Below, piece by piece: positions 18,719 through 61,955 of a stretch of DNA of 64,000 nt (position 1 is the first letter of the stretch; the number at the start of each line of letters is the position of its first letter). The stretch is from an uncultured SAR86 cluster bacterium. Its GTDB lineage: Bacteria > Pseudomonadota > Gammaproteobacteria > Magnimaribacterales > TMED112. The notes under the pieces are model-generated. The model saw nothing but the letters and a program-made list of their open reading frames with translations. It made no database searches and was not told the origin of the DNA. The DNA lies in assembly GCA_902619265.1 (NCBI GenBank), contig CACNDL010000003.1, positions 71,096-135,095 on the forward strand. Direction: 5' to 3'. The position numbers were made by a program, and so were the translations under genes.

Positions 18719-19740
18719 AAGCTTTAGTAAAAACAGAAAATGCAGTCGGTTTAAAGTTGCAAGATATTGAAGTTCCTCAACTTCGTTCTGACGATATTCT
18801 TATCAAGGTTAAAAAAACAGCGATTTGTGGCACTGATTTGCATATTTGGAATTGGGATAAGTGGGCAAGCAATACAATAAAACCACCTATGACGATTGGT
18901 CATGAGTTTATGGGTGAAGTGCACGAACTAGGTGCTAATGTTAAAAATTTTAAGATTGGTGATAGGGTATCTGCTGAATCACATATTACGGGCTTAAAGA
19001 GTAGAAATGCTAAAGCAGGTAAACTTCATTTAGACCCCGACACTGTAAATATTGGTGTTGATAGAGATGGTGCCTTTGCAGAATTTATTGCAGTGCCTGG
19101 AAAAAATGTTATTAAGTTGCCAGATAATATCTCCGATGAAATAGGTGCGATTCTCGATCCTTTTGGAAATGCAGTACATGCTACTTTATCTTTCGACTTG
19201 GTTGGAGAGGATGTGCTTGTAACAGGAGCTGGACCAATTGGGATTATGTCAGCGGCAATTGCAAAATATGTAGGTGCTCGAAACGTCTTACTCACCGATA
19301 TTAATGACAATAGACTTAAACTCGCAAAAGAGGTATGCGATGTTGAGACCCTCAATCCGCTAAGTGATAATTTAAAAGCCAAAATGTCAGAAATGGGACT
19401 GAAAGAGGGATTTGATGTTGGTCTAGAAATGTCGGGTTCAGAACAAGCCATTGATCAAATGATGGACGCTATGATAATGGGCGGTAACATATCTTTGCTT
19501 GGGTTGCCTTCAGATAAAATTGAATTTGATCTTTCAAAAGCAATTTTCAAAGCTTTAAATCTTAAAGCAATCTACGGTAGAGAAATTTTTGAAACTTGGT
19601 ACAAAGGGATGGCATTAATAGATTCTGGATTAAATATTGAAAATATCATCACTCACAAATTTCATTACTCAGATTTCTCCCAAGCATTCGATTTGCTGAA
19701 TTCTGGCAAGGCAGGCAAAGTTATTCTTGACTGGAATTAA
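18715..19740 (+). CDS. tdh: L-threonine 3-dehydrogenase
   Basis: 341-aa zinc alcohol dehydrogenase fold. Motifs [21 protein letters not shown] and [10 protein letters not shown]. Confidence 0.9.
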
Positions 19741-20887: not shown

Positions 20888-22073
20888 CTTTTTCTAGATC
20901 AGCAATTGAATTTACAATCTCGACGTAATTTTGATAGAACTCTTTTGATTCACCATCAGCATTTGTATATGGTGTTTTTACACTGCCATCATCTAATTTT
21001 ATTAGCCCAATAGACATTAAAAATCTTGAAACAACCAGTGCCCTATTTATGCTGCCAAGAAAACGAAGGTAACTTAATGCTCCCCAATCTTGGACATCAC
21101 CTTCTGAAGGATAGTATTTGGTAATTCTGGCAAAAACTACATCTCTATCTTTATCTATGAAGACAAACTGGCCAAATTTTCCGCTGGTGTTGTAAATTTT
21201 GGCATCATCATCGTACTTCGAGATCCACCATTGGAGGCTATAACCTCGAGTATCACTGTGACTCCAACCCATACTCGGTGTCTTGCCCCAATAAAGTTGC
21301 AAAGATTCATCAACATAATTTTTGGATATGATTTGCTTGCCATTCCAATTTCCATCTCTGTTGAAAAGCAGCCCAAATTTGGCAAAATCCCTGGCTGACA
21401 TATCTAGGCAACAATAGGTCATGGTGTTTCCAGCACTATCTTCCCAGGCTGTGTAGTCCTCTAACCCTATTTGACTAAAAATTCTTTCTTCTAATAATAC
21501 TTTGGCAGTTTTTCCTGTTGCTCCTTTGAGTATCTCGCCTATCATCATTGAGTTTACATTGTTGTATTGAAAAACTTCACCAGGCATATTTTCTACACCT
21601 ACTTTTTCAGCGTATTTAAGATGATCAGCTTCTAGAAACATCATTTCATGTTCGTGATCAGGAAACTCCAATCCACTAGTCATATTCAATATTTGACGAA
21701 TCGTAATTTTCTGTTTCTCTGGAGTCTTATAAGAGTCAACGTAATTGGCTACAGGCTCATCCAGGCTTTTGATCTCACCTCTATCAAGTGATATTCCTAC
21801 CAACGCAGCATAAAAACTTTTTGCTGTGGACCAAGATGTCCCAAATGAGCTTTCACCAAAACCCTCTGCATATTGTTCCTGTATTATGTAACCATCTTTG
21901 ATTAAGACAGCACTCATTGTGGCGTCGTCATCAAAAGTCATTGTGAATAATTTATCTATTTTTTCCTGGTCAAGGCCGAATTGATCAGGTTTAGCTGTTT
22001 CCCATTCACCATCTGGAAAATACTTATCTGCAAACACAGATAATGAAATTAAAAATATGATAGCTAGCCTCAT
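20880..22073 (-). CDS. Beta-lactamase-fold serine hydrolase (secreted), paralog 1 of a tandem pair
   Basis: Signal peptide. SxxK motif (SWSTAK). 8-nt overlap with the downstream paralog. Confidence 0.75.
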   Translation of the reverse strand: MRLAIIFLISLSVFADKYFPDGEWETAKPDQFGLDQEKIDKLFTMTFDDDATMSAVLIKDGYIIQEQYAEGFGESSFGTSWSTAKSFYAALVGISLDRGEIKSLDEPVANYVDSYKTPEKQKITIRQILNMTSGLEFPDHEHEMMFLEADHLKYAEKVGVENMPGEVFQYNNVNSMMIGEILKGATGKTAKVLLEERIFSQIGLEDYTAWEDSAGNTMTYCCLDMSARDFAKFGLLFNRDGNWNGKQIISKNYVDESLQLYWGKTPSMGWSHSDTRGYSLQWWISKYDDDAKIYNTSGKFGQFVFIDKDRDVVFARITKYYPSEGDVQDWGALSYLRFLGSINRALVVSRFLMSIGLIKLDDGSVKTPYTNADGESKEFYQNYVEIVNSIADLEKDV

Positions 22074-32121: not shown

Positions 32122-32714
32122 AAAAAACAATAATATTTTTTACCTTTTTAGCTGTTACTTCATGTGCAAATAGCATCCCTTCCAATCAAGATGATATTTG
32201 TGACATCTTGAATGAAAACCCTAGATGGCAAAATTCTTTGTTAAACGCTAAGCAAAAATGGAATGCTGATCCTAGTACTGTGATGGCAATAATTAGACAA
32301 GAATCTTCCTTTGATTCCAATGCAGCTCCGGATCGGGAAAAAATACTAGGTTTTATTCCTTGGAAAAGGCCAACATCAGCGAAAGGTTACTCTCAAGCAA
32401 TTGAAGGCACATGGGAGGAATATCAAAAAGAAACAGGTCAAAACAGAGCCAACAGATCAAATTTTGATAGTTCAGTTGATTTTATTGGTTGGTATTTATC
32501 AAAAGCATCCTCATTAAGGATTAGAAATTATGAAGTAGACAAACTTTATTTGGCTTATCATGAAGGCTACGGAGGCTATAAGAGACGAAGCTATAAAGAT
32601 AAAGATTGGCTGATCGATGTTGCTAAAAAGGTCAAATATAATGCTGTGAGGTATGAAAGACAATTAAAAAATTGCCCGCTCAAAGAAAAAAGAGGTTTTT
32701 GGGATATTTTTTAA
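32118..32714 (+). CDS. Lytic transglycosylase (SLT-like) domain lipoprotein
   Basis: Lipobox AVTSC. Catalytic-Glu context AIIRQESSFDSNA. GYSQAIEGTW further on. Confidence 0.7.
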   Translation: MKKTIIFFTFLAVTSCANSIPSNQDDICDILNENPRWQNSLLNAKQKWNADPSTVMAIIRQESSFDSNAAPDREKILGFIPWKRPTSAKGYSQAIEGTWEEYQKETGQNRANRSNFDSSVDFIGWYLSKASSLRIRNYEVDKLYLAYHEGYGGYKRRSYKDKDWLIDVAKKVKYNAVRYERQLKNCPLKEKRGFWDIF

Positions 32715-35593
32715 ATTCTTTTAATTAGGAAACCGTTTTCTTGAGCAGTTTTTTCTAAGTTTGGGTTAATAATTGAAAAGACACTGTACGGTTTTGATTT
32801 CAAGTTATTAGCTGCTTCAACTAAATCATCCTTCGTTACAGAGAAAATATTTTTTCTATATTCTTCGCGCATTTTTTGCGTTTTATCTTCACTTGATAAC
32901 CTGTAATCTTTAAATGCTTCGCCTGCAGGGGAAGCGGGCTTGTCAATATCCGATAAAACTGAAAGTTTACTTTCTAAAATCATATTCTCATCAAAACTTC
33001 CTAAAGCCGCCCAGCTTATTGCACTCTGAAAATCTTCAATTGTTTCTAGAAACCTAGGGTCGCGGTAAGAGAAAAATTTGAATGTACCTGAGAATGGGTC
33101 ATACGAGGCACCTCCTCCATAAGCACCACCTTGTTCTCTAACTCTTTTGTGAAGAAATTCGTTTCTCATCAAACTAGACAATAGAATGTACTTTGGTGAT
33201 TCCTTTACATCGTAAATTGGTGCATCTAATGACATTGCCGAAAAATTCACTTGTGTATTTATTGGAAAGACAATCTTGTTAAATGTTTTATTAAAGTTGA
33301 TATCAACTTTTGAATCTCCATCTTTCTTAAAATTAATGTCTCTTATCAAATTGATTTGATCTTTAGTTAATTTTTTATTTGAGACAAAAAGCAATTCACT
33401 TTTCATAGATTCTAGTTTTTTATGCATAGTCTCAACTTTTTCGATTTGTTTTTTCATTGAATCATCTTGGCTTGCTACAAATGGAGCAAATTTAGAGATT
33501 GCACTTAAACCACCCATCGATTCTTGGAGATATGAAAGCTGGTTATGTGATGAACTAGCACCTAACATTGCGAATCTGTGGCCATTTTCAACAATGGACT
33601 GTTGAAAACCCATAAAATTTTGAAACATTAACTCTCTAATTCTCTCATGAAGATCAAAATTGGTTTTATTAAATATTTCAAAAATAAGCTTAGTGGTGTC
33701 AACAGTATTTTCTGGCAGGAATTTAGCAGATAAAGTCATTTTGCCCTTAAGCTCTTGATTCTTGTCATAGAAAAAATGATTAGAGGCCGATATACCCCCA
33801 GATATTCTTGAAATTTCTTGTTGTAATTTAATGTGGTCCCTATCTCCCGCAGCAACTTTACCTAACAGAGCCGATAGGATCATTAGGCTATCTAGTTCAT
33901 CTTGTGATTCAACCACTAATTCTTTGGAAACAAGATTGTAGGTAAGTCCATTCGTTGGTTGTTGATAAAAGATTGGTGAATAGCCAAATGTTGTTAATTT
34001 TTTGGTCTTCGGAAAATCGATGTTCTTAGGCACATCATTTAGTTCAAGTTTTGGCAGCACATCTTTATTTGGAACAGCATTTTGTCTATCAGCTAAATTT
34101 TTTGACTGGTTCACTAAATCGAGCTTTTCTTTGCTACTCATCGAGGACTTAATATTTTCTAAAATTTTCTTTAGTTCTCCCTCTTTTTTATTTATCAGAT
34201 CTGTATCAGGTGTCATTTCAAGACTCACTTTGTGATTGTTTGAGATGAAAAATTTCTTAACAAGATCAGTTAAAAAATCTTTTTCTTTGACGTTTTCTTT
34301 TAAGGTTTTCAATGCCTCATCTACATTAGACAGCTCCAATGGATTTGCTTTATAAAGTGAACCTGGTGCCATTGATAGAAGGATCTGCAAACCATAAGGC
34401 AATGATGCTGCAGAAATCTCTCTTCTGTTCAGTTCTAGTTGATATAAAGCAGATGAAACTTGTTCTTCTGAAAAGCCTTTTTTCACAATTTCTTTAAAAG
34501 TCTTTTCTAATAATTTTTCAAATTTTGGTTGGCTGTTTGCTTCAGTTCCTTCTATTCCACATATAAATACTAGGTGTCTCATGCTGTCCTCTAAACCTAG
34601 TATTTGAGCAGGTGACTTACCAATGTCATTTGATTCCAATGCTCCATAAAGAGGCGATGAAGAGTTATCCATCAGTAACAAAGAAATTAAATGAGCTTCA
34701 AGTAATTGATCAATATCGAAGCTTTCACCCAACACCCAAGCAGCATAATTTTGGTGTCCTGATTGTTCTTGTGAGACTGGATTGAAGGATTCTGTGGCAT
34801 TTACAGGTTTTGAAAATGGTTTTTGTTGTTTGACAATCTCAATATTTTTTTCGTCAACTTTTTTAAATTTTTTGGATAATTTTTTGTCGATAAATGACTG
34901 AATCTCTTTTGCATCAACATCACCCCATGTGAAATATGTTGCATTTGAAGGATGATAATATTTCTTATGAAAGTCTTTTAAATATTTGTGTGTCAAGTTG
35001 GTAATATCCTTAGGTTCTCCACCACTATTATGTCTGTAAGTAAGATCTGGAAATAAGTTTTTCGTCAAAGCTTGCCAAGTCGTATTGGTAATATTGCTCA
35101 TTGATCCCTTCATTTCATTGAACACCACACCTTTGTACTCTAAATCAGTACTGCTCTTATCAAATTTGGAAAATTCAAGCCTGTGGCCTTCCTGCATAAA
35201 ATCCTCTTCTTCCAATAACGGAAAATAAGCTGCATCCAAATATACGTCTAATAAGTTAAAAAAGTCTTTTTTGCTTTGAGTTGCAAATGGATAAGCAGTC
35301 CAATCGCTTGCTGTGAAAGCATTCATAAATGTACTCATTGATCTTCTCAGCATCATAAAGAATGGATCTCGAACTTTAAATTTTTCAGATCCACATAATG
35401 TGGTATGTTCTAGAATATGAGCAACTCCTGTAGAATCTTCAGGAATGGTTCTAAACATGACCATAAAGACAAGCTCTTTTGAATTATTCTTTAGATGAAT
35501 ATGTTCAGAATTATATTCATCGAGCAAATATCTTTCGGCTTCAAACCCTAAAGATGGATTATTTTTCTTATCTAAAAGTTTATAACTATTCAT
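32711..35593 (-). CDS. Peptidase M16 family, PreP-like (M16C) large metalloprotease
   Basis: 960 aa. Inverted zinc motif HILEHTTLCGS (HxxEH) near the N-terminus. Confidence 0.85.
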   Translation of the reverse strand: MNSYKLLDKKNNPSLGFEAERYLLDEYNSEHIHLKNNSKELVFMVMFRTIPEDSTGVAHILEHTTLCGSEKFKVRDPFFMMLRRSMSTFMNAFTASDWTAYPFATQSKKDFFNLLDVYLDAAYFPLLEEEDFMQEGHRLEFSKFDKSSTDLEYKGVVFNEMKGSMSNITNTTWQALTKNLFPDLTYRHNSGGEPKDITNLTHKYLKDFHKKYYHPSNATYFTWGDVDAKEIQSFIDKKLSKKFKKVDEKNIEIVKQQKPFSKPVNATESFNPVSQEQSGHQNYAAWVLGESFDIDQLLEAHLISLLLMDNSSSPLYGALESNDIGKSPAQILGLEDSMRHLVFICGIEGTEANSQPKFEKLLEKTFKEIVKKGFSEEQVSSALYQLELNRREISAASLPYGLQILLSMAPGSLYKANPLELSNVDEALKTLKENVKEKDFLTDLVKKFFISNNHKVSLEMTPDTDLINKKEGELKKILENIKSSMSSKEKLDLVNQSKNLADRQNAVPNKDVLPKLELNDVPKNIDFPKTKKLTTFGYSPIFYQQPTNGLTYNLVSKELVVESQDELDSLMILSALLGKVAAGDRDHIKLQQEISRISGGISASNHFFYDKNQELKGKMTLSAKFLPENTVDTTKLIFEIFNKTNFDLHERIRELMFQNFMGFQQSIVENGHRFAMLGASSSHNQLSYLQESMGGLSAISKFAPFVASQDDSMKKQIEKVETMHKKLESMKSELLFVSNKKLTKDQINLIRDINFKKDGDSKVDINFNKTFNKIVFPINTQVNFSAMSLDAPIYDVKESPKYILLSSLMRNEFLHKRVREQGGAYGGGASYDPFSGTFKFFSYRDPRFLETIEDFQSAISWAALGSFDENMILESKLSVLSDIDKPASPAGEAFKDYRLSSEDKTQKMREEYRKNIFSVTKDDLVEAANNLKSKPYSVFSIINPNLEKTAQENGFLIKRI

Positions 35594-37449: not shown

Positions 37450-37645
37450 TGAAACTTTTTTTAAGATATTTTTAGTTATTTGTTTAATACCAGTAGCTAT
37501 ATTAGTTGGTAAAGCTTTTCTACTGCTTTCACCAATTCTTTTTTGGGTTCTAGGCTATATGGCATTTAAAAAGGGGAATCAAAACGAAACAATTATGTGG
37601 GTTATTTTTGCCGTTTTGGGTTTAATCCTAGCCTTTGTCATATAG
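37433..37645 (+). CDS. Small two-TM membrane protein, unknown function
   Basis: 70 aa with two hydrophobic helices. Overlaps the preceding gene by 17 nt. Confidence 0.4.
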   Translation: MNSLLNETFFKIFLVICLIPVAILVGKAFLLLSPILFWVLGYMAFKKGNQNETIMWVIFAVLGLILAFVI

Positions 37646-37660
37646 AATAAGCAATCTACC

Positions 37661-37745
37661 GGGGATGTGGTGGAACTGGCAGACACGCTGGATTTAGGTT
37701 CCAGTGCCGTAAGGCGTGGGGGTTCGACTCCCTCCATCCCTACCA
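37661..37745 (+). tRNA. tRNA-Leu (anticodon TAG), long variable arm, encoded CCA
   Basis: Folds by hand. Anticodon stem CTGGA/TCCAG with loop TTTAGGT. T arm GGGGG-TTCGACT-CCCTC. Acceptor GGGGATG/CATCCCT implies a G1-U72 wobble. Confidence 0.85.
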
Positions 37746-37764
37746 ATTTTGTTAAAATAAAATT

Positions 37765-37902
37765 ATGAAAGACGAAGACTTAATGAAATTAAGTGAGCAT
37801 TTTTTTGAGAAGTGTCCAACAGAAGCCAGGAATTTTTTTCACCAAATCCTTGCCAAGCTGGATGAAATTGAAAAAAAGCTTGAGAATTTAGAATCTAAAT
37901 AA
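37765..37902 (+). CDS. Possible 45-aa ORF (MKDEDLMKLSEHFFEKCPTEARNFFHQILAKLDEIEKKLENLESK)
   Basis: Hand-translated; below the ORF-track cutoff. It fills most of the gap between tRNA-Leu and the convergent esterase gene. No homology is recognised. Confidence 0.25.
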   Translation: MKDEDLMKLSEHFFEKCPTEARNFFHQILAKLDEIEKKLENLESK

Positions 37903-37919
37903 GTTGCGAAAATTTTGTA

Positions 37920-38906
37920 CTATTGAGCAATTCTGCCATTGATATCAAACTCTTTTAGAAAATTCCAGATTTCATCAGCAGCAATAATATCGTAATCGTT
38001 TAGATCTGTTGGCCAATCATGGGCTATTTGATCCATAAGGAAGAGCTGAACATCAACATTATTCAAACATCCATGATATCGATAAAGTGAGCCTCCATAA
38101 CCATCGTCATTAAGATCAGGAATAACAAAAACGGTCTCTTGATCACAGCCATTATAGTTTTTCCAATAATCTATCATATCGGTCAGAGGAGTAGAGCGCC
38201 CATTACCATCAATGGGAACAACCGTATCATCTCTTCCATGAATGTGAACTATTGCTGTGGGTTGATTAGGGCTACAAGTTGCATAAGTATTTGGTGTCAT
38301 GGAGCCACCCACAGAAGCTACTCCTGCGATTCTGTAACCTAAATTACAGGCTAAGTGATAGCTCATTTTGCCCCCATTTGATTTGCCTGTGGCATAAACT
38401 CTGCTTAAATCGATTTGATATTCCGCATAAGCCCAATCGATTAAGTTGGAGATAAAGTCTATGTCATTAGCAGGACTTTCACTCGTCCAGCCACTATCAT
38501 TCCAATGGGGTTGGCCTGTGCTTGGCAGAATAGAGCCTTGCGGATAAATTACAATAAAATCATCAGTATCAGCCAAAGATTGAAATCCTGAATAACCTAA
38601 AAAATCAAGGGCTTGTCTTCTATAACCATGCAGATTGAATAACAATGGTGCGAGTGTAATAGGAGTATTTAAACCATCTGGAACATAGATATAGAACTCT
38701 CTATTAAGATCAAGATGCTGTACGGTACAGTATTTTAAATTGGGGTAGTCTGTTGTTGAACAGCTAGGAGCGTTATTCACTGGTGGAGGTGTAACTATTG
38801 GAGTTATAATTTCTTCTGAAGTTCCGCCACTTCCTCCGCCACAGCCTGCCAATAAAATAAATGACATCATTGATAATGTTTTAGATATTTTGATGATTTG
38901 TTTCAT
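37920..38906 (-). CDS. PHB-depolymerase / LpqC-type esterase family lipoprotein
   Basis: Start taken at the internal Met (38906), giving MKQIIKISKTLSMMSFILLAGC, which contains a lipobox. Alpha/beta-hydrolase features LFNLHGY...VIYPQG and nucleophile elbow GKSNGG. HIHGRDDTVVP further on. Confidence 0.7.
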   Translation of the reverse strand: MKQIIKISKTLSMMSFILLAGCGGGSGGTSEEIITPIVTPPPVNNAPSCSTTDYPNLKYCTVQHLDLNREFYIYVPDGLNTPITLAPLLFNLHGYRRQALDFLGYSGFQSLADTDDFIVIYPQGSILPSTGQPHWNDSGWTSESPANDIDFISNLIDWAYAEYQIDLSRVYATGKSNGGKMSYHLACNLGYRIAGVASVGGSMTPNTYATCSPNQPTAIVHIHGRDDTVVPIDGNGRSTPLTDMIDYWKNYNGCDQETVFVIPDLNDDGYGGSLYRYHGCLNNVDVQLFLMDQIAHDWPTDLNDYDIIAADEIWNFLKEFDINGRIAQ

Positions 38907-38970
38907 AAGAAGAGATTTGATTATAACAATCAATTTGACTGCAATTTAAATATTTACGAGGATATGAATT

Positions 38971-39336: not shown

Positions 39337-39343
39337 ATCCAAG

Positions 39344-39604
39344 TTATTTAGATTTGATCTTATTATTATCATAGGACTGATGCCGACCAACCTTAAAACT
39401 TCTCAAAGATGCATGTTTTGTTTTTCGGCCGCGCACTCTTTTCTTCCATACCAAAAAAGACCCTGAATTTAATTCTTTTTGCATTAGTTTCTTAACGCCA
39501 GCTTGGTCTAAATCAAATTCTTGTTTGATGGCTTCAAAAGGAGTTCTATCCTCCCATGCCATTTCAATGATCCTGGATATTTCTTCTCGATTAAACTTAG
39601 GCAT
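39344..39604 (-). CDS. TIGR03643 / DUF2805 family small protein
   Basis: RIIEMAWEDRTPFEAIKQEFDL...VKKLM...FLVWKKRVRGRKTKH matches the family pattern as I recall it. Confidence 0.65.
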   Translation of the reverse strand: MPKFNREEISRIIEMAWEDRTPFEAIKQEFDLDQAGVKKLMQKELNSGSFLVWKKRVRGRKTKHASLRSFKVGRHQSYDNNKIKSK

Positions 39605-39644
39605 TTGATTGAAATAAAGTATTTTCTCTCATATATATAACTAT

Positions 39645-47018: not shown

Positions 47019-47262
47019 AAAGTAGAAAAAACCAAACTATAGGTATTACTAACAGACACCCAAAGGTAATATTTAAAGCAAGCATTAGTGGAAAATCTAC
47101 TATTGCACCAAGGAAGTCTGACAAGGAGTTTCCGATTAAAGCACCATACAAAGCTCCATTTACACCAGAACCTTTAAAATATTTATCAATATCTATACCT
47201 AAAACAGTAGCAAATGCTAGAACACCATTATCAATCAGACCATAGATTATCCCATCAGGCAT
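47005..47262 (-). CDS. Small membrane protein (85 aa), unknown function
   Basis: Gly/Ala/Leu-rich hydrophobic sequence. Start shares 1 nt with the stop of the upstream gene (TAATG). Confidence 0.4.
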   Translation of the reverse strand: MPDGIIYGLIDNGVLAFATVLGIDIDKYFKGSGVNGALYGALIGNSLSDFLGAIVDFPLMLALNITFGCLLVIPIVWFFLLFKKQ

Positions 47263-47648
47263 TAGAAAATTTTCCTTTTCATATTTTTCAAAGTTACATA
47301 TAAAAATACGAAATAAACAACTTCAAAAGCAGTGAAACCTATTAGAAATGCTGATGTAAACTCACCATAAATTAAAGTTATGATTCTTCCCAGCAGAATA
47401 CCAGTTATTAAAAAAAGCAATATCTTAAAAAATATTTCTTCATGCTGGGGTTTAAATACTGCGTAAAGTGCAAAAAGACCAACTAAAAAATTTATACCAC
47501 CATAAACGGATCTGATTTCAGCTGACCCAAGATTTGAAGTTAAGCTCAAACCTACATCATCTACATAAGAAGCTGGATCAAATAAAGCCCAGCCGCCTAG
47601 CCAGCCATACATTATTGCAGTGAACAGTAAAAAAATTTTATTAATCAT
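47262..47648 (-). CDS. DUF4345-like four-TM membrane protein
   Basis: IMYGWLGGWALFDP...AEIRSVYGGINFLVGLF resembles DUF4345. Start shares 1 nt with the putA stop. Confidence 0.5.
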   Translation of the reverse strand: MINKIFLLFTAIMYGWLGGWALFDPASYVDDVGLSLTSNLGSAEIRSVYGGINFLVGLFALYAVFKPQHEEIFFKILLFLITGILLGRIITLIYGEFTSAFLIGFTAFEVVYFVFLYVTLKNMKRKIF

Positions 47649-50600
47649 TACTCATTATTTTTAGTTAATAAGTCTATATTACCACCTGTTGCCATAACAT
47701 TGTCAGTGAAAGTTTTTTCAGTAACAAAACTATGTAAATAATTTGGTCCACCAGCTTTAGGGCCGGTACCACTTAGCCCTTGGCCACCAAAAGGCTGCAC
47801 ACCGACAACTGCACCAACAATGTCTCTATTTAAATAGAAGTTACCTACATTAGCTTTATCAAAAATCTGTTTCGCCTTATCAAGAATTCTTGAATGCACA
47901 CCCATTGTTAACCCAAAACCAGTCGCATTAATTTCATTAATTAAGTTATCGAGATCAGACGTTTTATAACTAATGAAATGCAGTACTGGTCCAAATTTTT
48001 CGCCATCAATTTCTTTAATTGAATCAATTTTGAAGGCTATTGGATTCATAAAAAATGATTGCTTATCAAATTTTTCCTTTGTTTCAATGAATTCTTTCCC
48101 TTGTTTTTTTAATTTAGCAACATGATCTTGTAATTTTGATATCGAAGTTTTGTTTATAATTGGTCCAATATCAGTACATGGTTTCTGAGGGTCTCCAACT
48201 TTGATTTCTTGCATAGCTTCATTTAAATATTCCCAGTATTCTTGAGCAATATCTTCTTGAACAAATACAACTCTCAAAGCACTACATCTTTGTCCTGAAC
48301 TATAGAAAGCTGACCTTATCACATCATCTATAACTTGCTCTTTTAATGAAGACGAATCTACGAACATCGCATTTTGCCCACCTGTTTCAGCAATAAGAGA
48401 TTTAATTGGTCCTTCTGATTTTGCCAGATTAAGATTTATGGATTTAGCAGCTATAGTTGAACCGGTAAATGCCACACCATTTAACTCATTAAGTTTTGTT
48501 AATTCATTACCTATTTCTTTTCCACCAATAACTAATTGCAGTACAGATTCAGGCACACCACTTTCATGAAAAAGTTTTACTATTTGAAAAGCAATTAATG
48601 AAGTATCTTCTGCAGGTTTTGCTAACACCTTATTTCCAGAAACTAACGCAGCAGCAATTTGCCCAATAAAGATTGCCATAGGGAAATTCCAAGGGCTGAT
48701 GCACAAGAAATTTCCCTTTGGAGCAACCGATAAAAAGTTTTTTTCTCCAGATGGACTTTCTAGCTCCACAGGTGTAAAAATCTTAGATGCTTGTAGACAA
48801 TAGTAATTAATAAAATCTACTGATTCTCTTATTTCTGCATCACAGTCTTTCAGGCTTTTACCTGCTTCCTTTACTAATAAGGCATAAAATAGATTTGCAT
48901 TGTCTTGGAGCAAAATTGCAGCTTTCTTTAAAACTTCTATTCGACTTTTAACTGAAGATTTTCTCCAATCATCACCATTATTAAAATTAATTTTGCTTAG
49001 ATTATCTTTTGAAAGATAAGATACTCTTCCAATTTTTTTTGATTGATCGCTAGGTGAAAATTTATCTTCATATGTATCTATTACTTCTTCACCATGAAGT
49101 AATGAGCAAGCATAGAAATCATGATTATCAAATGCTGCTATGTTTTTTGTTAGATTTTCTATCTCCATTAAGTCCCCAAAATCAAAACCTTGCGAATTCT
49201 CTCTATCGGAGAAAATTTTATTAGGTCTCGGAACCTGCTTTAAGAAATTTTTTCCGGAAAGGTTTTTAGTTGCTATCTCTATTGGATTTTTAACAACTTC
49301 TTTTACTGGAATATCTTTGGATAGGTATTTGTTTACGAAAGAACTATTAGCTCCGTTTTCTAATAGTCTTCTGACCAGGTAAGGTAGTAGTTCTTTTTTG
49401 GAACCAACCGGCGCATAAACTCTTGTCAAAGGAAATTCTGAATAAACTTTTTGAGCATTTCTATATGTAAGGTCACCCATCCCGAATATTCTTTGAAATT
49501 CAAACTGATCTTCTCGACCTTGATAAAGATGCATAATTCCTGCAATTGTATGAGCATTATGTGTAGCAAAATACGGGCGTAGATTCTTTGTATCAGAAAT
49601 TATTTTTGCAGTTGAAAGGTAATTTAAATCTGTAAAAGATTTAGACGTAAAAACTGGCAAATCTGCTGCACCCTTGACCTGATGAATTTTTATCTCTTGG
49701 TCCCAATAAGCGCCTTTAACCAATCTCATCATCATGCCGTTTCTATTTGCACCAAGTTCATCAATAAATTTAACAACTACCGGAGCTCTTTTACCGTAAG
49801 CTTGTATTGCTAAACCTAAACCACTCCAATCTTTTAAGTCTTTTCGTTTAGCCAGATTCTCAATAAGGTGAAGACTAAGTTCTAATCTATCCTGTTCTTC
49901 AGCATCAATAGTTAAAGCTATATCATGTGCAGCAGACTGAACGCAAAGCTGATACACCCTTTCTAATAGCTCATCCATCACTCTATCTTTTTTTGTTGCT
50001 TCGTATCTTGGATGAATAGCTGAAAGTTTTATGGAAATTTCGTGAAAAGATTTTGAAAGTAAGGCATTTTTTTCACCAACCTTTCTTATTGCTTCTTCAT
50101 AAGCATTGAAGAAAAAATCTACATCAGATTGGGTCCTTGCAGCTTCACCAAGCATATCAAATGAACAAGGTACTTTAGGCTGATCAAATTTATTCAACGC
50201 GTCATCAATATCAATACCCGATACAAACTCTTCACTTAAGATTTCCATACCTTTTTTAATGGCTTCCCTTAGGATTGGATCACCCAATCTTGAAGTTAAA
50301 CCTTGGAACCAGCTAATTGGGTTTGCACTAATATTTTTATCTAACTCAACGACTTGTTCAGCTAGGAATAAACCAAAAGTTGTAGCATTTACAAATAAGG
50401 ATGGAGAGCTATTGAAGTGATCCAGCCATTTTTTTCCACCTATTTTTTCTTCAATAATTTCATCACAAGTTTCATTGTCTGGAATCCTTAGGAGTGACTC
50501 CGCCAGACACATTAAAGCTATGCCTTCTTGATTGCTTAAACCATATTCTAGAAAAAAATTATCTAATCTAGTCTTATTTCTGTCTTGACGACATCTATTT

Positions 50601-50734
50601 ACTATTTCTTCAGCATTTTGAGATATTATTTTTTCGCTGATCCATTGATGATCATTGATGAGATCAGAAACAAGATTTGTTTCATCTCGATATTTAAGCT
50701 TCTGTAATTCTTTGAAATAGCTATCCGTACTCAT
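47648..50734 (-). CDS. putA: Bifunctional proline dehydrogenase / 1-pyrroline-5-carboxylate dehydrogenase
   Basis: 1028 aa. The N-terminal half has PRODH features (FDMLGEAA, VKGAYWD, LVRRLLENGANSSF). The C-terminal half is an aldehyde dehydrogenase (ETGGQNAM, GQRCSALR). No N-terminal ribbon-helix-helix DNA-binding domain. Confidence 0.9.
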   Translation of the reverse strand: MSTDSYFKELQKLKYRDETNLVSDLINDHQWISEKIISQNAEEIVNRCRQDRNKTRLDNFFLEYGLSNQEGIALMCLAESLLRIPDNETCDEIIEEKIGGKKWLDHFNSSPSLFVNATTFGLFLAEQVVELDKNISANPISWFQGLTSRLGDPILREAIKKGMEILSEEFVSGIDIDDALNKFDQPKVPCSFDMLGEAARTQSDVDFFFNAYEEAIRKVGEKNALLSKSFHEISIKLSAIHPRYEATKKDRVMDELLERVYQLCVQSAAHDIALTIDAEEQDRLELSLHLIENLAKRKDLKDWSGLGLAIQAYGKRAPVVVKFIDELGANRNGMMMRLVKGAYWDQEIKIHQVKGAADLPVFTSKSFTDLNYLSTAKIISDTKNLRPYFATHNAHTIAGIMHLYQGREDQFEFQRIFGMGDLTYRNAQKVYSEFPLTRVYAPVGSKKELLPYLVRRLLENGANSSFVNKYLSKDIPVKEVVKNPIEIATKNLSGKNFLKQVPRPNKIFSDRENSQGFDFGDLMEIENLTKNIAAFDNHDFYACSLLHGEEVIDTYEDKFSPSDQSKKIGRVSYLSKDNLSKINFNNGDDWRKSSVKSRIEVLKKAAILLQDNANLFYALLVKEAGKSLKDCDAEIRESVDFINYYCLQASKIFTPVELESPSGEKNFLSVAPKGNFLCISPWNFPMAIFIGQIAAALVSGNKVLAKPAEDTSLIAFQIVKLFHESGVPESVLQLVIGGKEIGNELTKLNELNGVAFTGSTIAAKSINLNLAKSEGPIKSLIAETGGQNAMFVDSSSLKEQVIDDVIRSAFYSSGQRCSALRVVFVQEDIAQEYWEYLNEAMQEIKVGDPQKPCTDIGPIINKTSISKLQDHVAKLKKQGKEFIETKEKFDKQSFFMNPIAFKIDSIKEIDGEKFGPVLHFISYKTSDLDNLINEINATGFGLTMGVHSRILDKAKQIFDKANVGNFYLNRDIVGAVVGVQPFGGQGLSGTGPKAGGPNYLHSFVTEKTFTDNVMATGGNIDLLTKNNE

Positions 50735-50782: not shown

Positions 50783-51718
50783 TTAATGCCATCTGGACTT
50801 CGCTTCAGCGAAAGAATCTTTAATTAATTCCCTCAGCCACATACAACCTGGATCTTTGTCATTTAAAACGTGCCAAGCTAGGAAAAACTGTGATGGTGCA
50901 ACTTCAAAAGGTAAAGTTTTATATGCTAAATCATGTTTGTTTGCAAAAGATTTCGTGCACGTTAAAACCATGTCAGTGCTATTCAAGACCTCAGGTGTTA
51001 TCAGATAGTGTTGCGCTCTAAGAATTACTTTTCTATCTAATTGCAATTTAGCTAGAGCATTATCGACTAATGCGCCACCTCTTTTTCTACCAGATATATG
51101 AATATGATCTAAATCTAAATATTGTTCAATTGATAAATTTTTCTCTTTGGCAAGTTCATGATCTTTACGAAAACCACAGACAAATTCATCCTCAAAAATT
51201 AATTCCTTTTTGATGTCTGAGTCAGATGGTGGAAAAGGGTCAACTGCAAAGCATACTTCATTTGCAGCCAATGCATGTTGCAGATCATCTCTTCGAGTGT
51301 AGTAACTACTCAAGCTCACCTTTGGGGCTTGTTTATGCACTTTGTCCATGAGGATTGGTAAAACTCTTCCCTCACTAATATCATTTAGCGAAAGTTTAAA
51401 TGTTCTGCTTGATTCTGCAGGATCAAAAGCATCTGGCGTTTCTAAACTTTTTTGTAAAATTGAAAGCGCTTCTCGAACATGAATAATAATATTCTCTGTT
51501 TTAGCTGTAGGCTGAACACCTTGTCCAACTCTGATAAATAATTGATCATCAAAATAATCTCTTAGCTTTGATAATGCACTACTGACTGCGGGTTGAGTTA
51601 TACCAACAATCTCACCAGCTTTAGTTAAACTCCCTTCTGTATAAATTGCATTGAAAACTACCAGAAGGTTTAAATCGAGATTATTTAATTTCATAAATGG
51701 CTTATAATTATAGAACAC
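50783..51718 (-). CDS. LysR-family transcriptional regulator
   Basis: HTH region [38 protein letters not shown]. The more likely start is the internal Met at 51694 ([11 protein letters not shown]...). Divergent from the acyl-CoA dehydrogenase operon. Confidence 0.85.
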
Positions 51719-56061: not shown

Positions 56062-58551
56062 ATGAACAAACTACTACAACTACTTTTTGTGACTTCTTTA
56101 ATAAATGCATATCCAGATATACCGGATGAATTAACAGGAGAAATGTTAAAAGAAATGCCTGCTGAGGTATTAGATGAATTTCTCGATGAGCTTAGGGAAA
56201 CAGATGAAGATTCTGTGACCATAGACAGTTTTTTAGCAGATGGAAAATTCAAAACCCACGAGGGTTTTCTAACAATTCACCAAAGAGAAGGTGAGATTGA
56301 AAGAAGTGATAATGAATTTTACATTGAATTAAAAGATGGACAACTTGATGCAGAATTTATTTACTTTGCGTACGTTTTGAATGCACCTCAAGCTGCTGGT
56401 GTTAGAGGAGGAGCGATTGGTCAAGGAGCTGTATTGGAGTTCAGAAAATTCAAAACAGGCCTAGCTTTGTATAAGAAAAATACTTACTTCTCAAATGAAA
56501 CAGTGAATAACATTGGTAAATCAGATTTAACTAATATTTTAGAAGCTTTTGTGATGAATTTTGATATTGTTGCAGAACAAGATGGCAGAATTGTTATTGA
56601 AGCTGATGATTTATTCATGGAAGAAACGCTAAATAACGTGTCACCAAATCTTCCACCAGAATATAGAAATTTTGTTGCCTTAAATTTAGGTAGATTAGAT
56701 TCAGATAAAACTTTTGTTGAACAAGTCAGAAATTATCCAAAAAATACTGCAGTGGAAGTGAATTTTGGTTTCGAAAATAGTAACCCTAACCAAAGAAGAG
56801 CTGTTTATGCGGTTTCAGATGCAAGATATACCTCTATCTCAGCAAGACATCTATTTGTAGAAATGCCCGACGATCAATTTGAACCAAGAGTTGCTGACCA
56901 AAGAGTAGGTTATTTTTCTCAGAGAGTAACAGATATGTCTACTTACGATAATTATCCACAAAGGGATCTAATTAATAAATGGAGATTAATTAAAAAAGAT
57001 CCAACAGCTGAATTATCAGAGCCAGTAGAACCTATTGTTTTTTGGGTCGATAAAGCAACACCGGAAGAAATTAAACCTATGGTTGTTAAAGGTATAGAAG
57101 TTTGGAATTTGGCTTATGAAAGAGCGGGCTTCAAGAATGCTGTAGTTGCTAAAGTTCAGCCTGATGATTCAGAATGGGATGCAGGTGATATTCAATATAA
57201 CGTAGTGAGATGGTCTTCATCTCCTGAGCCAGGTTTTTCTGGTTATGGTCCTAGCATTGGTAATCCAAGAACTGGTGAATTAATAGCTGCAGATATAGTC
57301 CAAGAATTTAACGCAATTAAAAGAGGCTATAACTATAGAAAACTTTGGGGCTGGACTCCTGAAAATGATCCTCTTGAGCAGTGGATCATAAGCCTGACTA
57401 TGCATGAAGTAGGCCATACTATCGGATTGCGACATAACTTCAGTGCAAGCTATCTATACGGCCCAAGAGAAGTGCATGACAAAAGCATCACTGGTAATAC
57501 CACAATTGCTTCAATCATGGATTACGACCCAATCAATATTGCTCCTCCAGGCTTGGAGCAAGGAAATTACTTTCCGACAGAACCGGGTGAATACGATAGA
57601 TGGGCTATTGAGTTTGCCTATAAACCAAACTTAACAGATGAAGAGAGAGCAGAGTTGTTAGCGTTATCGGTATTGCCTGCATACAGATATGGTACTGATG
57701 GTGACGCAATGGGTACGCCAGGTAGAAACATTGACCCTAGAACGAGAAGGGGCGATATGTCTAATGATGTTGTGACATATACAGCCGATAGATTTATTAC
57801 ATTAGATAATAAAATAGCTGAACTTCCGGAAATTTATGCAGATGAGGGTGAAACTAAAAACGATTTTACCAATTCTTTCTATAGTCTTGTAAGTGACAAA
57901 GGTAGATTTATGGATATTGTTGCTGGCCAAGTAGGCGGCGTTTACGTTACCAGACTTGTTAATGGGCAAGATGAGGTAAATGCTTATGAACCTGTCCCTT
58001 ATGAAAAGCAAAAAGCAGCAATGAATTTGATCACTACAAAATTCTTTGCCAACGGTGTTTGGACTTTTGATCCAAAAATTCTTAAAAATTTACAAAGAGA
58101 AAAAAGAGCTACAAGTTATTCTAGCGGTGGGAATGAAGACCCACAATTACACGATATGGTATTAGGGATGCAGGGAAGAGTATTGGCATCACTATTGCAT
58201 CCAAACGTTATGACTAGGCTAGTAGATTCAGGTCAATACGGTAATACCTACATGCCAGCTGAGGTTCTACAAGATCTGTTTGATGGCATTTTTGTCAAAG
58301 GAGAAACACCTGATACTTTCAAAAGAAATCTACAATCGGTTTATGTGGATGGCTTAATCAGTGTATTTGCTGAGGATAGTAGATATGACGATATAGCTAA
58401 AGCCTCTGTTTTTAGTTCCCTTGTTGATATACAAAAATTCACCAAAGGCACATCTAGAGACCCTGGAGTGAAAGCGCATTATCAATATTTAAACTGGAAA
58501 GTTTCTAACTTTCTAGATGGTAAGGTATTTAATCTTCTAGAAGAGGAGTAG
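56062..58551 (+). CDS. Secreted zinc-dependent metalloprotease (DUF5117/DUF4953-type)
   Basis: Signal peptide. Zinc motif HEVGHTIGLRHNF. 829 aa. AAGGTGA lies before the ATG. Confidence 0.75.
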   Translation: MNKLLQLLFVTSLINAYPDIPDELTGEMLKEMPAEVLDEFLDELRETDEDSVTIDSFLADGKFKTHEGFLTIHQREGEIERSDNEFYIELKDGQLDAEFIYFAYVLNAPQAAGVRGGAIGQGAVLEFRKFKTGLALYKKNTYFSNETVNNIGKSDLTNILEAFVMNFDIVAEQDGRIVIEADDLFMEETLNNVSPNLPPEYRNFVALNLGRLDSDKTFVEQVRNYPKNTAVEVNFGFENSNPNQRRAVYAVSDARYTSISARHLFVEMPDDQFEPRVADQRVGYFSQRVTDMSTYDNYPQRDLINKWRLIKKDPTAELSEPVEPIVFWVDKATPEEIKPMVVKGIEVWNLAYERAGFKNAVVAKVQPDDSEWDAGDIQYNVVRWSSSPEPGFSGYGPSIGNPRTGELIAADIVQEFNAIKRGYNYRKLWGWTPENDPLEQWIISLTMHEVGHTIGLRHNFSASYLYGPREVHDKSITGNTTIASIMDYDPINIAPPGLEQGNYFPTEPGEYDRWAIEFAYKPNLTDEERAELLALSVLPAYRYGTDGDAMGTPGRNIDPRTRRGDMSNDVVTYTADRFITLDNKIAELPEIYADEGETKNDFTNSFYSLVSDKGRFMDIVAGQVGGVYVTRLVNGQDEVNAYEPVPYEKQKAAMNLITTKFFANGVWTFDPKILKNLQREKRATSYSSGGNEDPQLHDMVLGMQGRVLASLLHPNVMTRLVDSGQYGNTYMPAEVLQDLFDGIFVKGETPDTFKRNLQSVYVDGLISVFAEDSRYDDIAKASVFSSLVDIQKFTKGTSRDPGVKAHYQYLNWKVSNFLDGKVFNLLEEE

Positions 58552-58639: not shown

Positions 58640-59497
58640 TCAATTTAATAAGATTTGAGCTGCTGCTCTAGACATTCTAGAGTTGCTATGGGCAACCCCG
58701 TTTACGATTTGAAAACTCCAATTAAATTCCAGTTTATTTTGATCGACAATCTTTTGGGTGTAACTAAAAAAGTTATTTGCTCGCTGAAATCTATTAGCAC
58801 CTTGATTATTAGCTCCATTTGACTGATTTACAGAGGATGTAATATCTGTATCAGCGGACCCTATCAGCACATGAAAGTCCATTTGTAAAAAGTCTCTTAC
58901 GTTAGATGAGTTAAAGTTAATTGGAGGATTAGAGAGACCATAAGGGAAGTTTGAGCCATCTAAGAAGGTATACCATCCTGCATTTGCAGCCACAGCAGTC
59001 TTAACCTTGGGTTTATCTGACATAAGTAGATAGCGGTGAACAAACTGAGCACCAGCTGAATGTCCGTAAATATTATACAATTCTTGCGATAGTGAAAACT
59101 TCGACTTTATAAAATCGAAAAGTATATCAATCGAATTATTAAGGTATAAATTTTTATCAGTACGTATTCTTCCGCTTGAAGTAGACATTTGTAGGGTATT
59201 AAAGCTAATAAATGAAGTTCTCTTAAAATGAGGAGCAAAAATAGCTATATTTTGACCCTTAGCTAACTTTATCCAGGTATTCAGATAGTCATCTGCATTT
59301 CTAGAATTACCATGTATCACAAATAGAATTTTTGTGTTGTTATCAATTGTATTAGGAAGATGATAAAAAACGTCTAAATCTGGTTTATTCCAGGAAGTAA
59401 AAGTAAATTTATCTAATTTAGCAGCATATAGATTAGTTGTAATAGAAAAAATAAATATAAAAATAGAAAAATTGAAAAAATTTAACCTCATAATCAT
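58640..59497 (-). CDS. Secreted alpha/beta hydrolase (esterase / depolymerase-like)
   Basis: Signal peptide. VIHGNSRNADDY. Nucleophile elbow GHSAGAQF. C-terminal VAHS. Confidence 0.65.
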   Translation of the reverse strand: MIMRLNFFNFSIFIFIFSITTNLYAAKLDKFTFTSWNKPDLDVFYHLPNTIDNNTKILFVIHGNSRNADDYLNTWIKLAKGQNIAIFAPHFKRTSFISFNTLQMSTSSGRIRTDKNLYLNNSIDILFDFIKSKFSLSQELYNIYGHSAGAQFVHRYLLMSDKPKVKTAVAANAGWYTFLDGSNFPYGLSNPPINFNSSNVRDFLQMDFHVLIGSADTDITSSVNQSNGANNQGANRFQRANNFFSYTQKIVDQNKLEFNWSFQIVNGVAHSNSRMSRAAAQILLN

Positions 59498-59538
59498 ATT
59501 TTAACAAGCTTAAGAAAAATAATGTATATAAATAGATA

Positions 59539-59713
59539 TTGAACACTTTAGATCTATAAAAGCATGATTAAAAATGGGTTTTATAGCTTTTTTATAAATA
59601 TTTTGAACATTTTAGTAGTAAATTATCAGTTAAATTATAATTTTGAACATTATAAAGGTAATATTTGAACACTTATTATAGTTTTGAACACAATAATTTA
59701 GAAATTTGAACAC
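59539..59713 (+). repeat. Array of six direct copies of TTGAACA[C/T] (extended consensus about WTTTGAACAYT)
   Basis: Copies start at 59539, 59603, 59643, 59665, 59684 and 59706, all on the + strand. ATTTTGAACATT occurs twice and ATTTGAACACT twice. The array lies in the 361-bp gap between divergent hydrolase genes. Confidence 0.75.
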
Positions 59714-59858
59714 TGTTTGCATGCTAAAAATTAATCCCTACAAGTCTTTGTATACACAATCTATTTGCTTAATTAAAAAGTTATGCAATTTTAAAATTTT
59801 TACTATTAAATTATTATATTCACTTCAGAAATATATATATTTTTATATAATCTAAATC

Positions 59859-61955
59859 ATGCTTAGGGCTTTAAGGACATTCTTACTATTACTTCTAATC
59901 AATAATTACTTACTTGCTTCAAGTGAATATGGATGGGTTCAAGACATTGTTGGTATAGATGAAAGTAGATTTAACTACGAGGATGGTTCTGATGCTGATT
60001 TGGAGCTTTATCTTAAAAACAGCTTTTTTTCATCTGTTAAACTTTCACCTGATGGAAAACATTTAGCATTTCAAAGTAAAAGTGATGAGTTTACTGAAGG
60101 CATTCTAGTTGCTAAAACAGATGATTTTTTAGACCCAAATAAAGGATTAGAAAAGGCAACAGTTGCAAAAGCTGCTATGAAAAGCAGTTCTGATAAAGTG
60201 TTAGGTGTTCCAGCTTTATATTTATGTGATTTTAACTGGGTATCAAATTCCATAATTTTAGTTGAGGTGTGTGGTAAACAATTTGATAGGCTCCAAGGCG
60301 AAATTTTTTCAAGTTTAGGCATATTTAAACTTTTCAACATTAAGACAAAAGAATTTAAGAATTTTATTTATCCTTTGGAACCGCCACCAAGAAAAGGTAG
60401 CTCAACTTTTGCAGATAGATATAAACCTGTTACTTTTATCTCTGCGTATGATGACGAAGGCGTTCTTATGTCTGTTGCAGAAAACAAAAGAGGTTTTAGA
60501 TATGCATATTTAAGAAAAATACCATTTGATAAAAGAGGCACAAAACCAAATGGAGAAGATATTTATGTTTCTCAAAAGCCGTGTCAGTACAAAGTCATGA
60601 ACAAAACAAATAACTTTTGCAATACACCTTTCATTTACATACTTGGAAAAGATAAGAAGCCTGCATTAACTTTCTCTAGTGACGCTGATTCAGTCTATGC
60701 TCACTATACTGATAAAAACACAACAAAAATTGATATTGATTTAGAGGACTACACTCCATTTGGGCTTAAAGGAGATCTTCTATACTTGACTGAGACGAGT
60801 GGCATTGGTGCGCATGGTATAAGTGTTCTGAATCTAAAAAATAAGAAAATCACAAGCATTATTCCTGAGGATTGTCACTCTCTTATTAATTCAATGACCT
60901 CTTTAAATGATCCTATTCCATATGCAGCAGGTATGGAATGTGATGGCAAAAAAGAAATCATTTATTTTGATCAAAATAAAAGAGATGCACAAATACTTAG
61001 TCAATTGGCTCCAGCCTTCCCAGATAAAACTATTTCATTAGGAAACTGGACTGACTCCAATGACAGAGCATTACTTATTGTTCAGGATTCTTCAGTAGTT
61101 AATGAAGTCTTTTTATTAGATCTAAAAAAAGGTTCTCTAAGACCAGTTGGAAGAACTTCAAATGTTCCAAAAGATAAATTACATAAAATGGTTTCAAAAA
61201 AGTTTAAAACCCGAGATGGTGCAGATATTTATGGATATCTAACACTTCCAAAAGGAAATGTACAAAGATTAATTGTCTATATTCATGGCGGTCCATACGG
61301 TATTAGAGACTTTGATTCTTATGATTTCTCAGAACAGTACTTAGCCTCAAAAGGAGCTGCAATATTAAAAGTAAACTTCAGAGGTTCTGGTGGTTACGGT
61401 AAGGATTTCATTGAGGACTCTTACAATGAGTGGGGAGGCACACTTTTAAATGACATTGCAGATGCAACTAAATCAGTTCAGAAGGAGCTTGGTATAGGAA
61501 GAGAAAAGACATGTGCTTTTGGAGCAAGTTATGGAGGCTATGCAGCGGTAGCTATGGCCTATAAACACAGTGAATTATACGAGTGCGTTGCAGGAGGAAT
61601 GGGAGTTTATGATCTAAAAATTCTCAGGGATGGTACTGATGGAAATGTTTATACATATAACGATGATTATGAAGAGATGGCTGAGGATTTTTGGGGTAAC
61701 GACGAAGCTCGACACATTGATTTTTCGCCCGTATTTAACGGAAATAAAATGAAGTCAAGAATTCTAATGTGGCATGGTTTGCAAGATCCTATATCTCCGA
61801 TATTACATATGGAAAAGATGAAAGAAGAATTAGATAATAACAACATTCCTTATCAAGCATTTACCATGTCAAAACTTGGACATACTTTTGGACAAAAAGA
61901 CGACATAAAAGCACATCTTCCAGTTCTGAAGGATTTTCTATTTAACGAACTTTAA
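59859..61955 (+). CDS. Peptidase S9 (prolyl oligopeptidase / DPP family), secreted
   Basis: Signal peptide. Beta-propeller-length N-terminal region. C-terminal alpha/beta hydrolase domain with IHGGPYG, nucleophile GASYGGY, and a late GHTF (His). Confidence 0.85.
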   Translation: MLRALRTFLLLLLINNYLLASSEYGWVQDIVGIDESRFNYEDGSDADLELYLKNSFFSSVKLSPDGKHLAFQSKSDEFTEGILVAKTDDFLDPNKGLEKATVAKAAMKSSSDKVLGVPALYLCDFNWVSNSIILVEVCGKQFDRLQGEIFSSLGIFKLFNIKTKEFKNFIYPLEPPPRKGSSTFADRYKPVTFISAYDDEGVLMSVAENKRGFRYAYLRKIPFDKRGTKPNGEDIYVSQKPCQYKVMNKTNNFCNTPFIYILGKDKKPALTFSSDADSVYAHYTDKNTTKIDIDLEDYTPFGLKGDLLYLTETSGIGAHGISVLNLKNKKITSIIPEDCHSLINSMTSLNDPIPYAAGMECDGKKEIIYFDQNKRDAQILSQLAPAFPDKTISLGNWTDSNDRALLIVQDSSVVNEVFLLDLKKGSLRPVGRTSNVPKDKLHKMVSKKFKTRDGADIYGYLTLPKGNVQRLIVYIHGGPYGIRDFDSYDFSEQYLASKGAAILKVNFRGSGGYGKDFIEDSYNEWGGTLLNDIADATKSVQKELGIGREKTCAFGASYGGYAAVAMAYKHSELYECVAGGMGVYDLKILRDGTDGNVYTYNDDYEEMAEDFWGNDEARHIDFSPVFNGNKMKSRILMWHGLQDPISPILHMEKMKEELDNNNIPYQAFTMSKLGHTFGQKDDIKAHLPVLKDFLFNEL

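Follow-up and report, generated by a model that had tools for sequence, protein, structure and literature searches.

The stretch of DNA analysed in this study, hereafter the window, comprises 64,000 nucleotides of ordinary SAR86 chromosome, in which purL, alaS, the ccm operon, smc, zipA, ligA and three tRNA genes are found. Near its right end two divergent genes, one for a secreted alpha/beta-hydrolase (hereafter the esterase) and one for a secreted S9 family peptidase, are separated by a gap of 361 bp at 59498-59858 with a GC content of 18.6% (Table 1). The esterase has weak matches to the NCBIfam families NF050058 and TIGR01840, which comprise esterases of PHB-depolymerase type, both below cut-off, and a Pfam search with it gave no match. 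Its start codon is probably the second ATG at 59491 (MRLNFF...) rather than the listed one at 59497, since both the orthologues and the position of the -10 element described below indicate the second ATG. MAGs and single-cell genomes carrying the label SAR86 or Gammaproteobacteria encode orthologues of the S9 peptidase, at identities of 56-87%. The gap is the only long non-coding divergent gap of the window. The earlier note on this DNA, which had been made from the sequence alone, called it the only long non-coding gap of all; this is true among divergent gaps, but other long gaps exist, namely 37450-37919, which holds a tRNA-Leu gene, 39337-39644, which is filled by an 86-aa DUF2805 ORF (39344-39604, minus strand, Pfam E = 1.6e-29) below the 120-aa cut-off of the initial ORF list, and 47019-47261, which is convergent. 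The remaining divergent gaps measure 32-95 bp instead of the 0-85 bp given there.

Table 1. Genes, boxes and predicted promoter elements at the esterase/S9 peptidase gap, in window positions
Feature	Position	Strand	Sequence	Remark
Secreted alpha/beta-hydrolase (esterase resembling PHB depolymerases)	58640..59497	-		285 aa; GHSAG nucleophile motif and signal peptide in the translation
Putative esterase extended -10 element	59498..59506	-	TGTTAAAAT (on minus strand)	ends 6 nt before the ATG at 59491
Box 1	59538..59547	+	ATTGAACACT	closest box to the esterase promoter; reads AGTGTTCAAT towards the esterase
Box 2	59602..59611	+	TTTGAACATT	found only in six-box versions of the array
Box 3	59642..59651	+	TTTGAACATT	opens the universally conserved four-box core array
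Box 4	59664..59673	+	TTTGAACACT	core array
Box 5	59683..59692	+	TTTGAACACA	core array
Box 6	59705..59714	+	TTTGAACACT	core array
Putative S9 -10 element	59846..59851	+	TATAAT	7 nt before the S9 ATG
Secreted S9 family peptidase	59859..61955	+		Pfam Peptidase_S9, E = 5.9e-32; divergent neighbour in this lineage

Six copies of TTGAACAY lie in the gap, all of them on the plus strand and none on the other, with starts at 59539, 59603, 59643, 59665, 59684 and 59706 and spacings of 64, 40, 22, 19 and 22 bp. All these positions and spacings had been given in the earlier note and were reproduced, and the extended flanking identities reported there, ATTTTGAACATT and ATTTGAACACT with two occurrences each, are correct as well. 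A repeat search identified boxes 3-4 and 5-6 as a duplicated unit of about 41 bp. Over the whole window the motif is not unusually frequent: it occurs 11 times on both strands versus 8.8 times expected, and 24 of 100 shuffles reach 11, so that the chance rate of about two per window (both strands) assumed before was too low. However, six of these 11 copies fall within 175 bp and the other five inside genes. A six-fold 7-mer with at least two G/C was obtained in none of 5000 dinucleotide-preserving shuffles of the gap (maximum 4), and a Poisson estimate from the background rate gives about 1e-16 for the clustering of the six boxes, in agreement with the previous judgement that six clustered copies are not chance. 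It is the clustering of the boxes, not their total count, that is the non-random feature of the window. Isolated copies elsewhere had been described as intragenic, which is right, but the list of them was too short: there are further TTGAACA copies, nine on the plus strand and six on the minus strand, of which none is intergenic.

For comparison, 13 distinct orthologous gaps of SAR86 were assembled from three sources: a genome collection (L001, L003 and L004), a metagenome pattern scan (L118, L146, L157, L164, L182 and L191), which is biased in that two perfect boxes were required, and a search by identity to the esterase protein, which is free of this bias (L228, L238 and L243 with identical copies). 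The set is divergent, with identities down to 62% for the esterase and down to 58% for the S9 peptidase. Absence of the array in relatives had been named beforehand as speaking against a function; it was looked for in these orthologous gaps, and a core array of four boxes in a single orientation is kept in 13 of 13, with spacings of 20-25, 17-19 and 21-22 bp and without any box on the reverse strand, an outcome that speaks for the finding. In 7 of the 13 gaps the array is extended towards the esterase by two extra boxes, with spacings of about 40 bp and 62-65 bp. Exact TTGAACA is found at all 52 core-array positions of the 13 gaps, and the consensus over 66 boxes is T(62/66)-TTGAACA-C(59/66)-T(53/66), beyond which the flanks hold no information. 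The box is accordingly the 10-bp T-TTGAACA-C-T on the plus strand, which read towards the esterase is GTGTTCAAAT / AGTGTTCAAA. Mean pairwise identity amounts to 93% in the 10 motif columns per box versus 51.5% in the spacer columns, the latter to be compared with 44.8% expected from composition alone; the boxes are therefore fixed and the spacers saturated with change, and the alignments show strong purifying selection on the boxes.

The number of boxes has changed in spite of this constancy of sequence. Contigs L243 and L238 code for identical esterase proteins and differ by a deletion of 103 bp that runs exactly from box 1 to box 3, and therefore copy number shifts by recombination or slippage between boxes, a polymorphism to which the repeats themselves give rise. 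The same identical-esterase contigs (L243 1303-1374, L238 3774-3947) provide examples with either six or four boxes. As for the arrangement on the helix, which the earlier note had taken to place boxes on one face of the DNA, phasing was measured at a 10.5-bp period by the mean resultant length R, which runs from 0 to 1. It is moderate in the six-box arrays (R = 0.70-0.84; p = 0.007-0.04 in comparison with jittered spacings) and not significant in the four-box arrays, and the claim is supported only in part.

Which of the two genes the array belongs to can be judged from the position of the promoters and from the gene order in other lineages. An element TGnTAnAAT (ATTnTAnCA on the opposite strand) occupies the equivalent place in 13 of 13 gaps, 6-12 nt before the esterase start codon, and is taken here as the extended -10 element of the esterase. 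Since in the window it ends 6 nt before the ATG at 59491, the esterase mRNA would be leaderless or nearly so. From the -10 hexamer to the nearest box there are 35-37 bp in 11 of 13 gaps (35 in the window), in four-box and six-box arrays alike, and, given a transcription start about 7 nt past the -10 element, box 1 would occupy approximately positions -48 to -57. The anchoring is not universal: L146 and L191 have 130-132 bp between the esterase -10 element and the array, which there comes to within about 65 bp of the S9 ATG. On the other side of the gap, the arrangement TATAAT-N6-7-ATG at the S9 gene is also found in L001, L004, L003, L146, L164, L182 and L191, and the S9 ATG follows the last box at anything from about 65 to 156 bp, a distance that is not conserved.

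The gene order is different in the lineages represented by L228, L238 and L157, in which the S9 gene and a 374-aa gene on one strand are followed by a GT2 and a GtrA gene on the other strand, a gap of 241 bp and the esterase. In this case the co-directional GT2/GtrA pair lies upstream of the esterase and the S9 gene is three genes off, and the array is still there, inside the 241-bp gap with its first base 14 bp past the GtrA stop codon. The S9 operon of these lineages carries no array, and none was found in L006, where a different esterase of PHB-depolymerase type lies directly before the S9 gene on the same strand. As minor features of this arrangement (L228 1-5264, also L238, L157 and L002), the 374-aa gene between the S9 and esterase genes has no family match, and a 143-aa copper-binding (cupredoxin) gene follows downstream of the esterase at the place taken by tRNA-Val in the window.

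The array is thus assigned to the esterase because it is kept where the S9 gene is not the neighbour and because of the 35-37 bp anchoring to the -10 element. Taken together, the comparison of the gaps shows it to be an upstream element of the predicted esterase promoter, travelling with the esterase gene and anchored to the putative -10 element. The description of the array as lying between the esterase and the S9 peptidase genes is therefore right for the window, but what it is tied to is the esterase promoter, rather than being a feature shared by the pair; the S9 peptidase would be an incidental neighbour in this lineage, with which control by the array may be shared here.

Another way to read these data is that the array represses or silences, or that the gap is a bidirectional region in which the S9 gene is the main target in this lineage, for example by an oligomer that loops or occludes both promoters. 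The array does stand between two divergent promoters in the window, in L146 and L191 the esterase promoter is far from it, with about 65 bp to the S9 ATG and about 49 bp to the S9 TATAAT, and the plus-strand box TTTGAACACT resembles the OmpR decamer TGAAACATCT, which faces its target at ompC, so that by this analogy the array would face the S9 gene. Nevertheless, the array is kept where the S9 gene is not adjacent and where the gene on that side ends rather than starts, S9 orthologues free of the array exist (the operon with the 374-aa gene of L002 and the L228 type, and L006), and the distance between the array and the S9 gene is not conserved. We thus regard such a role as unlikely.

The position of the promoters also bears on the idea that the repeats act in RNA, either within a long 5' leader of the esterase or S9 mRNA, where they would bind a protein or an sRNA, or within a separate small RNA that sequesters its partner. 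A short motif repeated four to six times in one strict orientation is also typical of protein-sequestering RNAs, and in the L228-type lineage read-through from GtrA could transcribe the array. However, the conserved -10-like elements 6-12 nt from both start codons would leave the array outside both mRNAs, and what the array is anchored to is a promoter element, not a start codon or a hairpin. Folding of the gap gave z-scores of 0.03 (plus strand) and +1.48 (minus strand) against shuffled controls, an Rfam search gave no match at E <= 1 and no terminator was found in the gap. A small ORF of 49 aa with a TTG start (59706-59855) is not conserved, as its region is missing in L146 and L191. An action in RNA is accordingly quite improbable, and these results support the previous view that the signal resides at the DNA level.

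Direct repeats at 19-22 bp in an AT-rich stretch might also be iterons for replication or partition, which the earlier note had put forward beside cooperative operators, or the remains of a mobile element, namely transposon ends or arm-type sites of an integrase, the more so as a tRNA-Val gene lies 0.9 kb from the array. Iterons of plasmids and phages are indeed like the SAR86 array in having several same-orientation repeats at 19-22 bp in AT-rich DNA, but in them the whole unit of 17-22 bp is conserved, and a rep gene, DnaA boxes and an unwinding element accompany them; the array has none of these features. In SAR86 the conserved part is just 10 bp of a unit of about 21 bp, the neighbourhood is free of rep, par, integrase and transposase genes, DnaA boxes number 75 versus 92 expected, the cumulative GC skew rises steadily across the window with no switch, and all SAR86 lineages sampled have the locus in syntenic chromosomal DNA. 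The replication reading was rejected because there is neither an excess of DnaA boxes nor a rep gene nor a GC-skew switch and because only half of the unit is conserved, and an origin from replication, partition or mobile elements in general is most improbable. The resemblance to an array of cooperative operators or activator sites, in comparison, is supported by the present analysis.

A further possibility starts from the tetranucleotide GAAC/GTTC, the enterobacterial phosphorothioation motif, which is present in every box: the array could be a cluster of DNA-modification targets serving as an epigenetic promoter switch. In favour of it, TorR of Salmonella competes with the phosphorothioation proteins DndCDE for tor boxes (PMC9239176). 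However, the conservation spans 10 bp and goes well past GAAC, neither a dnd nor a methyltransferase gene was noticed in the window, and GAAC alone is common there (TTGAAC occurs 52 times), so that we would give this proposal hardly any weight.

Several familiar elements were tried and set aside. A sigma-54 site formed by box 6 and TTGCA (TTGAAC-N6-TTGCA) lacks the GG, and its TTGCA is not conserved in L001 and L004; boxes as sigma-70 -35 or -10 elements lack a suitably spaced second hexamer on both strands; and for the consensus sequences of ArgR, MetR, Lrp, CRP, FNR, PhoB, DnaA and Fur no palindromic partner or match was seen by eye. A dispersed genomic repeat was ruled out as well, the clusters in about 308 kb of (redundant) SAR86 sequence being all this array.

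The motif had been said to match no known operator, a statement that needs to be qualified. Its reverse complement shares TGTTCA with the tor boxes of TorR: CTGTTCATAT and the SAR86 box GTGTTCAAAT agree in 8 of 10 positions, and the TGTTCA core is identical. In the torR-torC gap of Escherichia coli we found three copies of CTGTTCATAT and one of CCGTTCATCC, all facing torC, with spacings of 10, 21 and 22 bp, and these sequences agree with a published account of the tor boxes (PMC9239176). The likeness extends to the geometry, as in both cases four head-to-tail decamers stand in a divergent intergenic region facing the regulated gene, spacings of 21/22 bp occur and the box nearest to the promoter lies just upstream of the -35 position. 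There are differences, too. In E. coli tor boxes 1 and 2 abut at a spacing of 10 bp, while the SAR86 boxes never do; torR adjoins its boxes while no regulator gene adjoins the SAR86 array; the distance from the box to the -10 element is 27 nt in E. coli and 32-34 nt in SAR86 when counted in the same frame; up to six boxes over 175 bp make up the SAR86 arrays and four the tor region; and the target is TMAO reductase in the one and a secreted esterase in the other.

A second parallel is provided by OmpR. The ompC promoter of E. coli holds two copies of TGAAACATCT in one orientation, 21 bp apart, and among its sites C1-C3 this strong decamer gives a precedent for a period of about 21 bp. Each OmpR dimer site spans 20 bp, with the decamer as its better-conserved half and a degenerate sequence as the other, and this pattern of one conserved half matches the single conserved block per two turns in SAR86. 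TGAAACA of OmpR and TTGAACA of SAR86 differ by one base. However, this is a one-base difference in the length of the core, which is not trivial for a recognition helix, and the OmpR decamer read as GAAACA faces its target whereas the same reading in SAR86 faces away from the esterase. Dimers of OmpR/PhoB type normally need two half-sites 10-11 bp apart; among the 66 sites of SAR86 no second conserved block was found at +/-10-11 bp of the core, and no boxes are less than 17 bp apart. For want of this half-site pairing at 10-11 bp, the boxes are likened to tor and OmpR sites in their working but are not classed as such.

The spacing alone is also that of LytTR regulators (AgrA, ComE, AlgR, BtsR/YpdB), whose sites are direct repeats of 9-10 bp with a spacer of 12-13 bp, that is a period of 21-22 bp; they lie upstream of the promoter that is activated and have the consensus [TA][AC][CA]GTTN[AG][TG]. 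Box pairs 3-4 and 5-6, at 20-25 and 21-22 bp from start to start, have this spacing. With respect to sequence, the degenerate consensus is matched only in part: GTT is common to it and GTGTTCAAA, and about three of six degenerate positions match, as judged by eye. LytTR sites usually come as one pair, whereas the six-box array of SAR86 would consist of two pairs and two single boxes.

In view of these results, the array is probably a cis-regulatory one, in which four to six head-to-tail boxes for a sequence-specific transcription factor control the promoter of the secreted esterase. A protein would bind the boxes and may activate rather than repress. The esterase promoter would consist of an extended -10 element (TGnTAnAAT) with no recognisable -35 element, the start of transcription being placed from the sequence. 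The nearest box, centred at about -52, would put a bound activator within reach of RNA polymerase, and the upstream boxes, about two helical turns apart, would load more copies of it cooperatively, so that the regulator would read one 10-bp box per two helical turns across four to six boxes. The factor would be a direct-repeat binder, possibly of OmpR/PhoB type, as the best match in both sequence and geometry would be with this winged-helix family (TorR at the tor boxes, OmpR at ompC); a LytTR-type regulator would fit the spacing equally well. Where the S9 gene is the divergent neighbour, the array may influence it too.

Candidates for the binding factor and further targets were searched for at several levels. 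The absence of an adjacent regulator gene, reported before, is confirmed: the sole transcription factor among the 55 window ORFs scanned (47648-50734 left out) is of LysR type (50783-51718), lies 8 kb away and is paired with its own divergent acyl-CoA dehydrogenase gene, and neither a response regulator nor any other candidate binder was seen in these 55 ORFs or in the flanks of the related loci. No second array locus was found in the 308 kb of SAR86 sequence mentioned above. In metagenomes, the pattern TTTGAACACT-N7-13-TTTGAACACT, which requires two perfect 10-mers, gave at least 120 matches. Among the matches listed, most are unrelated tandem repeats, many in GC-richer or eukaryote-like DNA; six are real, all six of them being the orthologous SAR86 locus, and no second target locus is among them. 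One group of AT-rich marine contigs (L114, L126, L140, L150, L156, L183 and L222) has two copies of TTTGAACACT 19 bp apart and was rejected as a coding coincidence (LDLNT...FEH). The ORF concerned, of about 252 aa, resembles shikimate dehydrogenase by eye, and would be a false positive for any scan with a pair of motifs.

In a scan of viral contigs for three copies of TTTGAACA at 17-23 bp, 100 matches were obtained. Nearly all are either perfect tandem repeats or phage units 22-23 bp long with a TGTTCA/TGAACA palindrome as their basis, and they are unrelated to the array; L013 looks like the array, but its repeats are inside an ORF. The palindromic units TGTTCAT-TTTGAACA, three to four of which stand at 22-23 bp in L018, L019, L023, L034, L037 and similar contigs, may be operators or origin repeats of the viruses.

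The window is rich in hydrolase and peptidase genes (8305-10068, 10202-12334, 19721-22073, 32711-35593, 37920-38933, 56062-58551 and 58640-61955). They code for a carboxylesterase, an S46 peptidase, two beta-lactamase-family proteins, an M16 PreP-like peptidase, a second PHB-esterase-like protein and a DUF4953 Met-zincin, as well as the esterase and the S9 peptidase, for which alone among them signal peptides were checked. None of the other hydrolase and peptidase genes of the window carries the box upstream.

Direct-repeat activator sites upstream of a promoter are well known in principle, and the array is a fresh example of a familiar element; its interest comes from the organism, abundant and with no described sites found, and from the clean experimental handle it offers. 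SAR86 is among the most abundant bacterial groups of the surface ocean. We know of no regulatory sites described for it; a literature search found none, and searches for SAR86 regulators and for the box motif returned nothing relevant. What the array provides is a sharply defined putative operator of 10 bp under very strong selection, with a concrete target gene, the secreted esterase. It opens regulation in SAR86 to experiment, in that the box can serve as bait for the regulator and as a search pattern for genes under common control, and the natural four-box and six-box alleles can be compared in metatranscriptomes. One may go further and see in it the operator of one of the very few transcription factors retained in the streamlined SAR86 genome, which would switch on secreted hydrolases in response to an external cue, the four or six boxes, altered in number by deletion between repeats, tuning expression between co-existing populations. 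This wider reading is tentative and rather doubtful as a whole; if true, it would give the first cis-regulatory code for SAR86, a lineage studied largely without cultures.

An observation apart from the array concerns the promoters of the window in general. At many genes that head divergent gaps, good -10 hexamers (TATAAT, TAGAAT, TAGACT) end 6-7 nt before the start codon and no Shine-Dalgarno sequence is present, as at 5231, 17525, 36153, 36793, 54875, 58640 (start at 59491) and 59859. Even if the AT-rich background may inflate the number of such hexamers, this and the shortness of the divergent gaps (32-95 bp) point to an SAR86 genome in which mRNAs with little or no leader are common.
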